From an uncultured Myxococcia bacterium (GTDB lineage Bacteria; Myxococcota_A; UBA9042; PHBI01): a stretch of DNA of 64,000 bases. The notes beneath the pieces were generated by a model. The model saw nothing but the letters and a program-made list of their open reading frames with translations, was not told the DNA's origin and ran no database searches. The DNA lies in the NCBI GenBank assembly GCA_942493285.1, contig OW818691.1, positions 8,030,532 through 8,094,531 on the forward strand, in the 5' to 3' direction. The position numbers and the translations under genes were made by a program. Below are positions 41,653 through 47,265 of this stretch, piece by piece. Each line of letters starts with the position of its first letter. The stretch's first letter is position 1.

Positions 41653-41985
41653 TCACCTTCCGAACTTGTCGGGGCGTAAGACCTCGATGTCCGCGAGGTA
41701 GATCACCATCGCGTAGTCCGGGTAGAACCGTTGCCGCAAGTGCCCGACGATGCGGGTCGCGACTGCGGTGTCGCAGATCACCTCGATGCGGATGTTGGCG
41801 TTCTGCTCCCAGCTCGAGGTGCGGTGGCCCTGGGCTCCGAGCCCACGCGCCTCGGTGATCGTATAGCCGCGTGCGCCGAGGGTCTCGAGGTCGTGTGTGA
41901 GCTCACGCTCGACGATGGCCTCGGTGATGATGGTCACGAGCTTACGCGGATGGGTCGTCAGCGGTTCAGCCATAGAGCGATTCAA
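41653..41985 (-). CDS. sbtB: SbtB-like P-II-fold signalling protein
   Basis: 110 aa. KLVTIITEAIVERELTHDLETLGARGYTITEARGLGAQG...IRIEVICDTAVATRIVGHLRQRFYPDYAMVIYLADIEVL aligns along its length with cyanobacterial SbtB/GlnB-like proteins. It overlaps the 3' end of the upstream permease gene. Confidence 0.75.
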   Translation of the reverse strand: MNRSMAEPLTTHPRKLVTIITEAIVERELTHDLETLGARGYTITEARGLGAQGHRTSSWEQNANIRIEVICDTAVATRIVGHLRQRFYPDYAMVIYLADIEVLRPDKFGR

Positions 41986-42904
41986 CCAGCCGATGGTAGA
42001 GCGGAATCCCGAAGATGACGTTGAAAGGGAACGTGATGGCGAGCACCGCGGTGAGGCTCATGGCCGGGTTGGCCTGAGGCACGGCTGTGCGCATGGCGGC
42101 CGGGGCCGCGATGTACGACGCACTGGCAGCCAGGGTGGCGAGCAGGACCGCGCCACCGACCGACAGGTCGAGCGCCATCGCGACCAGGGCGCCAATGCAC
42201 GCGAACGCGATCGGGATGACGATGGCGAAGGCCGCGAGGAACAGTCCATATCGAAGGAAGCCTCCGAGCTGCGAGGCCGCGATGAGACCCATCTCGAGGA
42301 GGAAGAGGGCGAGCACTCCTTTGAACAGGTCGAAGAAGAGTGGGGTGATGGGCTTGATTCCGACGGGGCCGCTGAGCCATCCGATGATGAGGCCACCCAG
42401 GAGGAGCAGGATGCCGCGGCCGAGGAAGACCTCGCGCAACAGGTGAGGCCACGAGGTGCGTGAGGTGCGACCCTTCGCGAGCACGATGCCAACGAGGATG
42501 GCCGGGACCTCGAGGATGACGAGGAAGAGGGAGAGCGACGGCTCGTGGGGGATCTGTGCCCGCGTCAGGTAGGCGATGGCGACCGCGAAGGTGGCGACGC
42601 TGACCGAGCCGTAGTGCGCGGAGATCGACGCTGCGTCCATTCGAGGCAGACGGCCGATGTAGCGCAGGATGCCGAAGGCGATGAGCGTCAGCCCGATGCC
42701 GAGCCCGATGATGACGACCACGTCGAGAGCGAGGCCGGGGGCCGGCTGACGTGCGAGCTCGACGCCGCCCTTGAGGCCGATTCCGAGCAGCAGGAGCGCG
42801 CTCAAGAACTCGTAGATCGCCGTCGGCAATCGGAGCTCCGCACGGGCGAGCCCGGCGAGGAGGCCGAAGACGAAGAAGTAGACCGACGGGTCGAGGCTGC
42901 TCAC
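41966..42904 (-). CDS. sbtA: SbtA-family (Sbt_1/DUF897) sodium-dependent bicarbonate transporter-like permease
   Basis: About 10 TM. Conserved IGLKGGVEL (compare IGLTGGMAI). The C-terminal AASASYIAAPAAMRTAVPQANPAMSL closely matches SbtA AASSSDISGPPTLRAGIPSANPSAYI. Confidence 0.75.
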   Translation of the reverse strand: MSSLDPSVYFFVFGLLAGLARAELRLPTAIYEFLSALLLLGIGLKGGVELARQPAPGLALDVVVIIGLGIGLTLIAFGILRYIGRLPRMDAASISAHYGSVSVATFAVAIAYLTRAQIPHEPSLSLFLVILEVPAILVGIVLAKGRTSRTSWPHLLREVFLGRGILLLLGGLIIGWLSGPVGIKPITPLFFDLFKGVLALFLLEMGLIAASQLGGFLRYGLFLAAFAIVIPIAFACIGALVAMALDLSVGGAVLLATLAASASYIAAPAAMRTAVPQANPAMSLTAVLAITFPFNVIFGIPLYHRLVESLYG

Positions 42905-42940
42905 TGGTAGGCGTTCTCGGAGGTGCCCAGGTGCGGACGG

Positions 42941-45900: not shown

Positions 45901-46093
45901 AGACCACGTCCGCCGTCTCCGGGTCGGTCATGATGGTCGCGGGGTTCGAGTTGACGAGGATGACCTTGTAGCCCTCGGCGCGCAGCGCACGACAGGCTTG
46001 CACCCCGGAGTAGTCGAACTCACAGGCCTGCCCGATGACGATGGGCCCGGCCCCGATGATGAGGATCGACGAGATGTCTTCGCGACGCGGCAT
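42941..46093 (-). CDS. carB: Carbamoyl-phosphate synthase large subunit
   Basis: 1050 aa with two ATP-grasp halves. The N-terminus [34 protein letters not shown] and the MGS-like C-terminus are canonical CarB. Confidence 0.95.
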
Positions 46094-46104
46094 CGGCTAT
46101 CCCC

Positions 46105-47265
46105 TCAGGCTGCTTTCTGGTGGCGGTGATGGCGCAGGTCGCTGACGAACCGATCGAATAGGTGCGACAGGTCGTGGGGACCGGGGCTCGCCTCGGGGTG
46201 GCCCTGGAACGAGAAGACCGGCAACGACACGTGCTCGACGCCCTGGTTGGTGCCATCGAAGAGCGAGACGTGGGTCTCGCGCAGCACGCTCGGCAGGCTC
46301 GCGCGGTCGACCGCGAAGCCGTGGTTCTGGCTCGAAATCAGGACGCGGCCGCTGCCGAACTCCTTGATCGGGTGGTTCGCGCCGTGGTGGCCGAACTTCA
46401 TCTTGGAGGTCTTTGCCCCGAGCGCCAGGCACAACATCTGGTGGCCGAGACAGATCCCGAAGACCGGCATGCCGGTCGCGACGATCTTCGCGATGGCGTC
46501 GTGCGCGTAGGTCACGGCCGCCGGGTCGCCCGGGCCGTTTGCCAGGAAGACGCCATCGGGTCGCAGCGACAGGACACGTGATGCCGGCGTCTCGGCCGGG
46601 ACGAGCGTCAGGCGGCAGCCGCGATCGACGAGCAAACGCAGGATGTTACGTTTCACTCCGTAATCGTAGGCCACGACGTGCGGCGCATCGCTCTCGTGCT
46701 CGAGCTTCGCCGTCGACCCGTCGCCGAGCCAGCGGATGGACCCCTTCTCCCACGCCGTCGCCTCGGGCAGCGTCACGACCTTGGCCAGGTCCGCGCCGTT
46801 GAGGCCGGCGAACATTCGCGCCCGGTCGATGGCGGTGTCGGGGTCGAGCGTGCGGCGCGCCACGAGGCAACCATTCTGGGCTCCACGCTCGCGCAGGATG
46901 TGGGTCAGGTGCCGCGTGTCGATGCCGGCGAGTGCAACGATCCCAGAACGACTGAGGTACTTGTCGAGCGGCTCACGCGAGCGCCAGTTGCTCGTCACGC
47001 GGGGCAGGTCACGAATCACGAGCCCGGACACCTGAGGGCCAGCGGCCTCGTCATCTTGCGGAGTGATGCCGGTATTGCCGATATGCGGCGCCGTGAGGGT
47101 CACGATTTGCTGGTGGTAGCTCGGGTCGGACAGGATTTCCTGATAGCCGGTCATCGAGGTGTTGAAGACGACCTCACCGACCGAGAAATCCTCGGCACCG
47201 ATCGAAACGCCATGCAGAACGGTGCCATCGGCCAACGCCAGGAGCCCCGGAACTCTAACAGCCAT
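46105..47265 (-). CDS. carA: Carbamoyl-phosphate synthase small (glutamine amidotransferase) subunit
   Basis: CPSase_sm N-domain and class I GATase with catalytic GICLGHQ Cys and C-terminal His/Glu. Start chosen at MAVRVPG. Confidence 0.9.

Follow-up and report, generated by a model that had tools for sequence, protein, structure and literature searches.

A candidate bicarbonate-uptake gene pair behind carAB in an uncultured Myxococcia bacterium

A 64,000-nucleotide stretch from an uncultured Myxococcia bacterium (GTDB lineage Bacteria; Myxococcota_A; UBA9042; PHBI01; assembly GCA_942493285.1, contig OW818691.1, positions 8,030,532 to 8,094,531), referred to here as the window, carries the genes carA and carB of carbamoyl-phosphate synthetase (CPSase) followed by genes for an SbtA-family permease and an SbtB-like PII protein. 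Each turnover of CPSase, in the synthesis of pyrimidines and arginine, consumes one HCO3-. It is fairly likely that the sbtA–sbtB pair (sbtAB) is an acquired bicarbonate-uptake cassette, co-expressed with this bicarbonate-consuming enzyme. The link to carAB is probably functional, because related pairs adjoin other bicarbonate-dependent nucleotide-synthesis genes in unrelated bacteria.

The proposed mechanism would be as follows. The housekeeping carAB operon gained a self-contained two-gene cassette in the space between its 3' end and a convergent gene. The permease would import HCO3-, likely with Na+, by an elevator mechanism like that of cyanobacterial SbtA. A trimer of the PII-like protein would dock on the permease's cytoplasmic face via its T-loop, using a conserved R51–N60 anchor, and gate it according to adenine-nucleotide status. 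The carAB promoter would drive sbtAB, matching bicarbonate import to CPSase demand.

The four-gene block

The features of the block, in window positions, are:

47266–47650, minus strand: intergenic region upstream of carA, presumed by position only to hold the promoter and leader of the four-gene unit
46105–47265, minus strand: carA, 386 residues from an internal ATG at 47265; the open reading frame (ORF) reaches a TTG at 47295
42941–46093, minus strand: carB, 1050 residues, bicarbonate-phosphorylating ATP-grasp large subunit
42905–42940, minus strand: carB–sbtA spacer, 36 bp, without a terminator-like element
41966–42904, minus strand: gene for the SbtA-family permease, 312 residues, GTG start, ten helices, PF05982 (Sbt_1)
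41653–41973, minus strand: sbtB-like PII-family gene, 106 residues from the ATG (41653–41985 from the first TTG)
41599–41652, no strand assigned: junction of sbtB with a convergent gene, 54 bp between two stop codons, with a stable hairpin

The original prediction, made from the letters of this DNA, had described four co-directional genes with gaps of 11 bp (carA–carB) and 36 bp (carB–sbtA) and a 20-bp overlap between the last two. The ORF map, on which all four genes lie on the minus strand, bore out the coordinates and the spacings; sbtA and sbtB overlap by 20 bp if sbtB starts at the TTG and by 8 bp (ATGGCTGA) if it starts at the ATG. The 106-residue product of the ATG start is on record as an NCBI-derived protein and the same form is called in relatives. 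Through the overlap ATGGCTGA, sbtB is predicted to be translationally coupled to sbtA. The third-position GC of the four ORFs is 0.81–0.88, like that of neighbouring genes.

CarA matched TIGR01368 with 443 bits (cut-off 307) and contained the Pfam domains CPSase_sm_chain and GATase. CarB matched NF003671 with 1639 bits (cut-off 599) and TIGR01369 with 1466 bits, and its nearest named orthologues were from Myxococcota and Nannocystaceae. By these family matches, carA encodes the glutamine-hydrolysing small subunit and carB the large subunit of CPSase. At the C-terminus of CarB there was no Pfam match at E ≤ 0.01 to the MGS-like allosteric domain PF02142. The domain was likewise not matched in the myxobacterial CarB clade (1048–1057 residues, some longer), and most of the non-myxobacterial CarB matches listed have it. 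As NF003671 aligns as far as residue 1035, the C-terminal regulatory domain (about residues 930–1050) appears to be present but divergent. Allosteric control of myxobacterial CarB by uridine monophosphate, inosine monophosphate or ornithine may therefore differ.

The permease matched PF05982 (Sbt_1; TC 2.A.83) with E 5.7e-106 and 354.7 bits (cut-off 27) over positions 1–307 of the 308 in the profile. A sequence search of the PDB gave Synechocystis SbtA (7CYE) with E 9e-24. The latter alignment fell into two blocks, residues 5–144 and 152–310 of the permease against 17–156 and 212–371 of the chain, because the permease does not have the cytoplasmic loop of about 55 residues (Synechocystis residues 157–211) that joins transmembrane helices TM5 and TM6. 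Identity to characterised cyanobacterial SbtA was 26–28%. The motifs quoted for SbtA in the original prediction, GIGLKGG and AASASYIAAP...PQANPA, were found in the permease.

An AlphaFold (AF2) model of the permease (pLDDT 84.5, pTM 0.84) was compared with solved structures using Foldseek. The closest were 8ZOR (TM-scores 0.88/0.84, root-mean-square deviation 2.5 Å), 7CYE (0.86/0.83) and 7EGL (about 0.8), reportedly the HCO3--bound SbtA structure of Fang et al. (2021). The next fold in the list was that of the ASBT bile-acid symporters, with a TM-score of 0.66. The model has the ten-helix 5+5 inverted-repeat fold with a broken TM4/TM9 crossover, and is closest to solved SbtA. The two crossover segments, H97-Y98-G-S-V-S102-x-x-T105 and S261-A-S263-Y264-I-A266-x-P268, are almost invariant in 152 distinct homologues. 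The permease is thus a true member of the SbtA family, within a distinct short, non-cyanobacterial subfamily. This subfamily is large, with 2284 related clusters in a library at 50% identity (E ≤ 1e-3).

The small protein encoded by the last gene matched PF00543 (P-II) with E 1.8e-22. Its matches in the PDB were TTHA0516 (2CZ4, E 1e-22), SbtB slr1513 (about 4e-10) and the carboxysome-associated CPII (6e-5). To place the pair in context, 167 loci with an SbtA homologue were used (80 each from a genome scan and a metagenome scan, and a further 7 by exact look-up of the nearest homologues; numbered below with the prefix L). A PII-like gene lies directly downstream of sbtA in 165 of them, and the other two end at a contig edge. 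The CGPxGC redox R-loop is absent from all 165 subfamily sequences, the window protein ending in ...LRPDKFGR. The match of both proteins to SbtA and SbtB along their whole length, as first proposed, therefore stands for the permease against the full Sbt_1 profile, but not for the TM5–TM6 loop of the permease or the CGPxGC loop of the PII-like protein.

In cyanobacterial SbtB, nucleotide phosphates are bound, and the T-loop is anchored in its SbtA-bound state, by the signature K40-G41-S42-R43...R46, N59 (PMC9974498). Across 147 homologues the consensus at the T-loop base was R-G-K-G-S-R-G-x-R...W...N. The window protein reads L45-G46-A47-Q48-G49-H50-R51...N60, so that the equivalents of G41, R46 and N59 are kept. 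The equivalents of K40, S42 and R43 are lost (L45, A47 and Q48), which counts against gating by nucleotides in the manner proposed. The expectation that SbtB binds adenyl nucleotides and cyclic AMP thus holds for the cyanobacterial protein, but is less secure for the copy in the window, which has L, A and Q at these three positions. Nevertheless, from its fold family and its constant position next to sbtA, the PII-like protein is a probable T-loop plug or regulator of the permease.

Canonical PII proteins act as regulators of N-acetylglutamate kinase and of acetyl-CoA carboxylase. The PII-like protein might, by analogy, itself be the link between the two pairs of genes, plugging the permease and also binding or regulating CPSase (or PurK in other lineages). 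PII proteins have multiple targets, cyanobacterial SbtB also binding GlgB, BicA and CmpC (PMC13249358), and the T-loop's base in the carAB-linked clade (L/F/R-G-A/S/H-Q) departs from the family consensus K-G-S-R. On the other hand, in the 167 loci the PII-like gene is always beside sbtA and never alone beside carB or purK, and the same Q substitution occurs in unlinked homologues (10 of the 147 sequences). A direct action on CPSase is accordingly considered very improbable. The same occurrence of Q at the R43 position in unlinked homologues also weakened the idea of a clade-specific T-loop in carAB-linked SbtB.

Signals at the gene junctions were then considered. A scan for terminators found nothing in the carA–carB, carB–sbtA or sbtA–sbtB junctions, and no sigma-70-type promoter consensus was found in the junctions or upstream of carA; both negatives are weak evidence, as the consensus patterns may not fit Myxococcota. 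A terminator between carB and the permease gene, which would have told against the original prediction, was not predicted by folding either: the region 42880–42990 was no more stable than shuffled sequence (z +0.25). In relatives this spacer varies in length, L085 having 3 bp and L083 having 55 bp. The region 41590–41680 beyond sbtB, by contrast, folded with unusual stability (z -2.97 on the minus strand and -3.74 on the plus strand, 200 shuffles). It contains a hairpin with the core CCCGAC-AUC-GUCGGG and no T-run, and the hairpin in 41599–41652 is probably a bidirectional transcription stop that ends the four-gene unit.

The layout, with all genes on one strand, short or overlapping junctions, no internal terminator-like site and a hairpin after the last gene, fits that of an operon, and from it we infer a single unit running from a start upstream of carA to an end beyond sbtB. 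In the window sbtAB has no LysR regulator next to it and no internal terminator could be detected, so that its expression would follow the carAB promoter. A riboswitch or attenuator before carA found no support: an Rfam scan of the whole window, carA leader included, gave no match, and the fold of the leader was not more stable than shuffles (z +1.15). The leader does contain a T-run (TTGGTTTTTTGCGG; 47375–47392, minus strand), about 110–125 nt upstream of the carA ATG, which is unusual for a genome of 67% GC.

Substrate of the permease

Ligand positions in the permease were mapped using a docking and mutagenesis study of Synechocystis SbtA, in which S114, Y140, S324 and S327 were proposed as HCO3- ligands and main-chain oxygens of F110, G111, A112, A320 and S322 as a Na+ site at the crossover (PMC8352866). 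Of the four HCO3- ligands the permease retains two, S114 as S102 and S324 as S263. The Na+-site positions align with Y98, G99, S100, A259 and S261; of these, G99 and S261 never vary, Y98 and S100 hardly do, and A259 is present in 112 of the 152 homologues, although main-chain ligands are not verifiable from sequence.

Three features speak against bicarbonate as the substrate. The other two HCO3- ligands are replaced (Y140 by L128 and S327 by A266), and the replacements are fixed across the 152 members of the subfamily. D325 of Synechocystis SbtA corresponds to an invariant tyrosine (Y264) in the short subfamily. No assayed SbtA member as close to the window protein was found in the literature searched. 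Because identity to cyanobacterial SbtA is only about 27% and two of the four ligands differ, bicarbonate is a substrate that we infer.

The possibility was therefore weighed that the permease carries a different small anion, or an intermediate of nucleotide synthesis, and that its recurrent neighbours (see below) reflect this. The 26–28% identity to characterised SbtA would allow it, as would the replaced ligands and the invariant crossover motifs peculiar to the subfamily (H97-Y98-G-S-V-S and S-A-S-Y264-I-A266). Sbt_1 shares its Pfam superfamily with bile-acid/Na+ and cation/proton transporters, and the linked enzymes all belong to nucleotide synthesis or tRNA modification and are not the largest bicarbonate sinks. 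Nevertheless CarB, PurK and TsaC each use ATP and bicarbonate/CO2, which is their one common substrate.

Further evidence came from homologues near genes for carbon fixation. In a locus from a Chromatiales metagenome-assembled genome (MAG), L006, the order is LysR<-sbtA-sbtB-cbbL(form IA)-...-csoS2. Its SbtA is 63% identical to the window permease with the same motifs, so that a member of the subfamily heads a carboxysome/RuBisCO operon, and its cbbL product matched the carboxysomal RuBisCO 1SVD with 1012 bits. LysR regulators, found in CO2-concentrating mechanisms, were also recurrent: 17 of the first-neighbour and 13 of the second-neighbour ORFs in the survey described below encode them, most of those directly upstream being divergent. 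In cyanobacteria, too, LysR-type regulators control the genes for inorganic-carbon uptake. Genes for SulP or Chr transporters, families that include known inorganic-carbon transporters (PMC10880623), lie upstream of sbtAB in two loci each.

SbtA-family proteins that transport HCO3- are known in autotrophic Pseudomonadota, and Thiomicrospira pelophila has an sbtA induced by low dissolved inorganic carbon plus a carboxysome-linked sbtA-CS (PMC12628692, PMC10880623). The SbtA2 family is as distant from SbtA1 (about 25% identity) as the window permease is from characterised SbtA, and it takes up HCO3-, damped by a PII-like partner (PMC13187645). A substrate other than bicarbonate is consequently thought improbable, and the permease is a probable Na+-coupled bicarbonate importer, judged by analogy with these relatives.

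Linkage to carAB and to other biosynthetic operons

The block is flanked by the following genes:

47651 (start), plus strand: divergent gene upstream of carA, no family match
41008–41598, plus strand: convergent conserved gene, no family match; its stop codon faces that of sbtB
40319–41011, plus strand: conserved gene, no family match

The four genes appear to form a discrete block, as the flanking genes are unrelated to them. The two genes that converge on sbtB are 73–98% identical in relatives, and downstream of the block there are also genes for a VKOR protein and a PQQ-repeat protein.

Among the 167 loci, carB is directly upstream of sbtA in only six. In three of these (L083, L084 and L088) SbtA is 92% and CarB 93–94% identical to the window proteins. 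In the others (L085–L087) the values are 75% for SbtA, 58% for SbtB and 84–88% for CarB, and the carB–sbtA gap is 3 bp. L090 belongs to the sub-lineage of the first three (92–94% SbtA identity) and its synteny continues downstream of sbtB; the downstream VKOR/PQQ synteny of the window is common to L085 and L090. In L085 (2670–3557) and L086 (2153–3040) sbtB is followed by an extra gene on the same strand, for a protein of 295 residues with no Pfam or NCBIfam match and no counterpart in the window.

L172 (CarB 84%) has carA–carB, then 179 bp, then a convergent homologue (73%) of the 41008–41598 gene, and no sbtAB. That gene marks the insertion site, as it directly follows carB in L172. The cassette is also absent from four loci with CarB orthologues of 76–80% identity (L168–L171), in which carA–carB is followed by unrelated convergent genes. 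From these gene orders it appears that, within a narrow clade of myxobacteria, the cassette was either gained or lost at a single intergenic site. The survey of synteny called for by the original prediction thus found the order kept in two sub-lineages, but not in L172, L168–L171 or the informative loci outside the clade, of which there were 147. The linkage is young and not widely conserved; because it is absent from L172 and from these outside loci, it is lineage-specific rather than a conserved operon.

The closest SbtA outside the clade (L001, 73%) is encoded beside tuf and ribosomal genes. Two MAG loci of Steroidobacteraceae show the same context, as does a metagenome locus, and the EF-Tu of L001 is 92–93% identical to theirs. 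The nearest relatives of the permease outside the clade are thus gammaproteobacterial, whereas those of CarB are myxobacterial, which suggests that the cassette was acquired from a foreign source. There are also signs of movement around carAB: genes for a Usp protein, a sigma-54 activator and a PAS histidine kinase stand beside carB in L170 (7189–10461; a 76%-identical relative), while the same families are found in the window at 56048–59261, about 9 kb away on the carA side. The different position of this trio implies local rearrangement around carAB in the group.

The genes next to sbtAB were surveyed more widely. First neighbours (134 ORFs upstream and 121 downstream) and second neighbours (103 on each side, the downstream set including the 295-residue gene of L085) were scanned against Pfam, and representatives were scanned against NCBIfam. 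PurK was found within 3.6 kb of sbtAB in 15 loci, on the same strand throughout, TsaC/Sua5 within about 1.2 kb in 9 loci, and the dihydroorotase PyrC, which acts in the pathway fed by CarAB, directly upstream of sbtAB in 9 loci.

The arrangements were varied. L078 (Gemmatimonadaceae) has purE-purK-sbtA-sbtB-tsaC on one strand and L044 (Fibrobacteria) has purE-purK-sbtA-sbtB; purK is also directly upstream of sbtA in L040 and L052 (Porticoccaceae). The order is sbtA-sbtB-purE-purK in L066, with purK at an equal distance downstream in L062, L142 and L165, sbtA-sbtB-purK in L051 (Cryomorphaceae) and sbtA-sbtB-tsaC in L079. Four Burkholderiales loci have purK-tsaC-sbtA-sbtB, and nine Lysobacterales loci have tsaC-pyrC-sbtA-sbtB (Luteimonas) or pyrC-sbtA-sbtB, with overlaps of 0–4 bp. 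Stop and start codons overlap in many of the purEK, tsaC and pyrC clusters, and the linked enzymes scored above the NCBIfam equivalog cut-off, except for PurK of L051.

The linked clusters span Gemmatimonadota, Fibrobacterota, Bacteroidota, Burkholderiales, Lysobacterales and other Gammaproteobacteria. Counting those with carAB, linked modules account for 20 of 108 SbtA clusters at 90% identity; at 70% identity they are spread over 9 of 30 clusters, with at least 8 different arrangements. As a background control, the second neighbours downstream were examined and no family occurred in more than 3 loci. The recurrent attachment of sbtAB to operons for bicarbonate/CO2-dependent enzymes suggests that selection, rather than chance, retains the fusions.

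A fortuitous origin of the linkage was considered in the light of these results. A mobile, self-sufficient sbtAB pair might have landed after carB and been tolerated there by read-through, serving general pH or inorganic-carbon homeostasis. The cassette does vary among syntenic close relatives, L172 being without it and L085 having both the cassette and the extra gene, and the contexts of homologues are diverse, with 71 Pfam families among the upstream neighbours. A Tn3-family transposase (DDE_Tnp_Tn3, E 3e-141) is encoded about 2.5 kb downstream of sbtA–sbtB in L135 (6144–9137; the same ORF is present in L136), which hints that transposons can carry the cassette. Against such hitch-hiking, about one fifth of the dereplicated cassettes have purK, tsaC, pyrC or carAB as same-strand neighbours, often with overlapping stop and start codons; the gene order varies and several phyla are represented, and chance insertion among thousands of sites is unlikely to give such linkage. 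Within the clade the linkage has also outlasted divergence to 75% identity in SbtA and 58% in SbtB. Hitch-hiking is therefore regarded as unlikely, as the recurrent pattern is hard to reconcile with random insertion.

The acquired, co-expressed uptake cassette favoured here has several observations to contend with. The absence of carB upstream in all 147 informative loci outside the clade leaves a linkage limited to a few close lineages, in which a neutral insertion at a permissive operon end is possible; the syntenic L172 locus, with no sbtAB, is in keeping with this. The neighbour survey used crude ORF calls and the enzyme classes were picked after the data had been seen. Part of the purK–tsaC and tsaC–pyrC adjacency may predate the cassette. 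No genes for acetyl-CoA, phosphoenolpyruvate or pyruvate carboxylases, which are also large bicarbonate consumers, were found among the surveyed neighbours. The proposal that bicarbonate supply is tied to CPSase thus gains from the clustering of homologous pairs with purEK, tsaC, pyrC and carboxysome genes, but the link to carAB itself is narrow and the substrate is assigned by homology.

More tentatively, short SbtA–SbtB pairs may be an anabolic bicarbonate module of several phyla, repeatedly and independently wired into carAB, purEK and tsaC operons, with pyrC alongside. Import would in that case be matched at the transcriptional level to biosynthetic demand instead of external CO2, with the module possibly standing in for carbonic anhydrase or adding to it.

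Several other neighbours of sbtAB recurred in the survey. A TerC/Alx membrane protein (TIGR03718, 377 bits) is encoded on the same strand in 19 loci, upstream of sbtAB in 16 and downstream in 3 (among them L017, L030, L043, L075, L128, L138, L145, L150 and L153). In several of these, gaps of 550–830 bp might contain a further small gene or a regulatory RNA. A gene for a NaChBac-sized, single-domain channel of about 278 residues (Ion_trans/PKD_channel) is on the same strand as sbtAB in 15 loci. It is directly upstream of sbtA in ten (L112, L118, L121, L139, L159, L162, L163, L113, L134 and L116), overlapping the sbtA start by 4 bp in seven and lying within 5 bp of it in the other three. The channel–sbtA–sbtB unit suggests a coupled Na+ circuit, judging from the gene order. 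The gene for subunit D of an Mrp-type Na+/H+ antiporter (NF009310, 650 bits) ends 1–7 bp before sbtA in L020, L100, L101 and L137, an arrangement that fits Na+ extrusion paired with Na+-coupled uptake. Such Na+-cycle neighbours lend indirect support to the substrate proposed for the permease. Two Luteimonas loci, L015 and L096 (positions 2–2491 and 7786–11260), have carB about 5 kb upstream of tsaC-pyrC-sbtA-sbtB on the same strand, a loose second co-localisation of carB with the module.

Elsewhere in the window, the minus-strand gene at 25261–30894 encodes a protein of 1877 residues in which DUF3686 (E 5e-190; described as an 'ATPase involved in DNA repair'), DUF7902 and an AAA domain were recognised. 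Large ORFs that matched nothing in Pfam adjoin it on either side, at 30857–33184 and 23234–25630 on the minus strand, and the three may form an uncharacterised multi-gene system. Between 10000 and 18000 the GC skew is -0.26 to -0.28 in 2-kb windows, far more negative than in the rest of the window.

Comparison with known systems

The closest characterised system is SbtA1–SbtB of Synechocystis (slr1512/slr1513; 7CYE, 7CYF, 7EGL, 8ZOR), which shares the Pfam family, the 5+5 fold (TM-scores 0.84–0.88) and the gene order sbtA–sbtB with the window pair. The permease has the equivalents of G111, V113, S114, T117, A320, S322, S324 and P329, and the PII-like protein those of G41, R46 and N59. Apart from its low identity (26–28%), the permease differs from Synechocystis SbtA in having no long TM5–TM6 loop and in the changes Y140 to L, S327 to A and D325 to Y; the PII-like protein differs from SbtB in having no CGPxGC R-loop and a T-loop four residues shorter. 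The setting differs as well: the window pair, in a myxobacterium, would be read as part of a biosynthetic operon, where a low-CO2 regulon under LysR control is the cyanobacterial setting. Among solved structures, the PII-like protein is matched best by TTHA0516 of Thermus thermophilus (2CZ4, E 1e-22), which has a short T-loop with conserved R and W and the same C-terminal end but is a PII-like protein without an assigned function.

Two further systems can be likened to the window pair by description only. The SbtA of autotrophic Pseudomonadota such as Thiomicrospira pelophila probably belongs to the same short subfamily, but serves a CO2-concentrating mechanism that feeds RuBisCO, whereas the consumer in the window would be CPSase (PMC12628692, PMC10880623). 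SbtA2–SbtB2 of marine alpha-cyanobacteria also combines a short SbtA-type protein with a PII-like gene; it takes up HCO3- in E. coli, is partially inhibited by its partner and shows an apparent chloride dependence (PMC13187645).

No earlier description of sbtA beside carAB or purK was found in the literature searched, which is not proof of novelty, nor was any report there of carbonic anhydrase or MpsAB/DAB fused to carAB or purEK operons. The proteins themselves are new members of known families. What seems to be new is the placing of SbtAB under a biosynthetic operon and its recurrence beside carAB, purEK, tsaC and pyrC. If the proposal is correct, PII-type 'plug' control of a carbon transporter extends well beyond cyanobacteria, and short loop-less SbtA variants with matched regulators become available for transporter engineering. 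Mutants in sbtAB would be predicted to be CO2-dependent auxotrophs for pyrimidines, arginine or purines.

For a few essential carboxylations, bacteria that are not autotrophs depend on bicarbonate. Their need for a bicarbonate supply has been established for carbonic anhydrase and MpsAB/DAB (PMC6689103, PMC8567241), whose role is like that proposed here, namely to provide bicarbonate for the CarAB and PurK carboxylations at ambient CO2. These proteins are unrelated to SbtAB and would work differently, by vectorial hydration of CO2 as opposed to HCO3- symport. If co-transcribed with carAB, purEK, tsaC or pyrC, an SbtA-type symporter with a PII-like gate would be a third route to bicarbonate, after carbonic anhydrase and MpsAB/DAB, the routes recognised so far, and one whose expression tracks biosynthetic demand.

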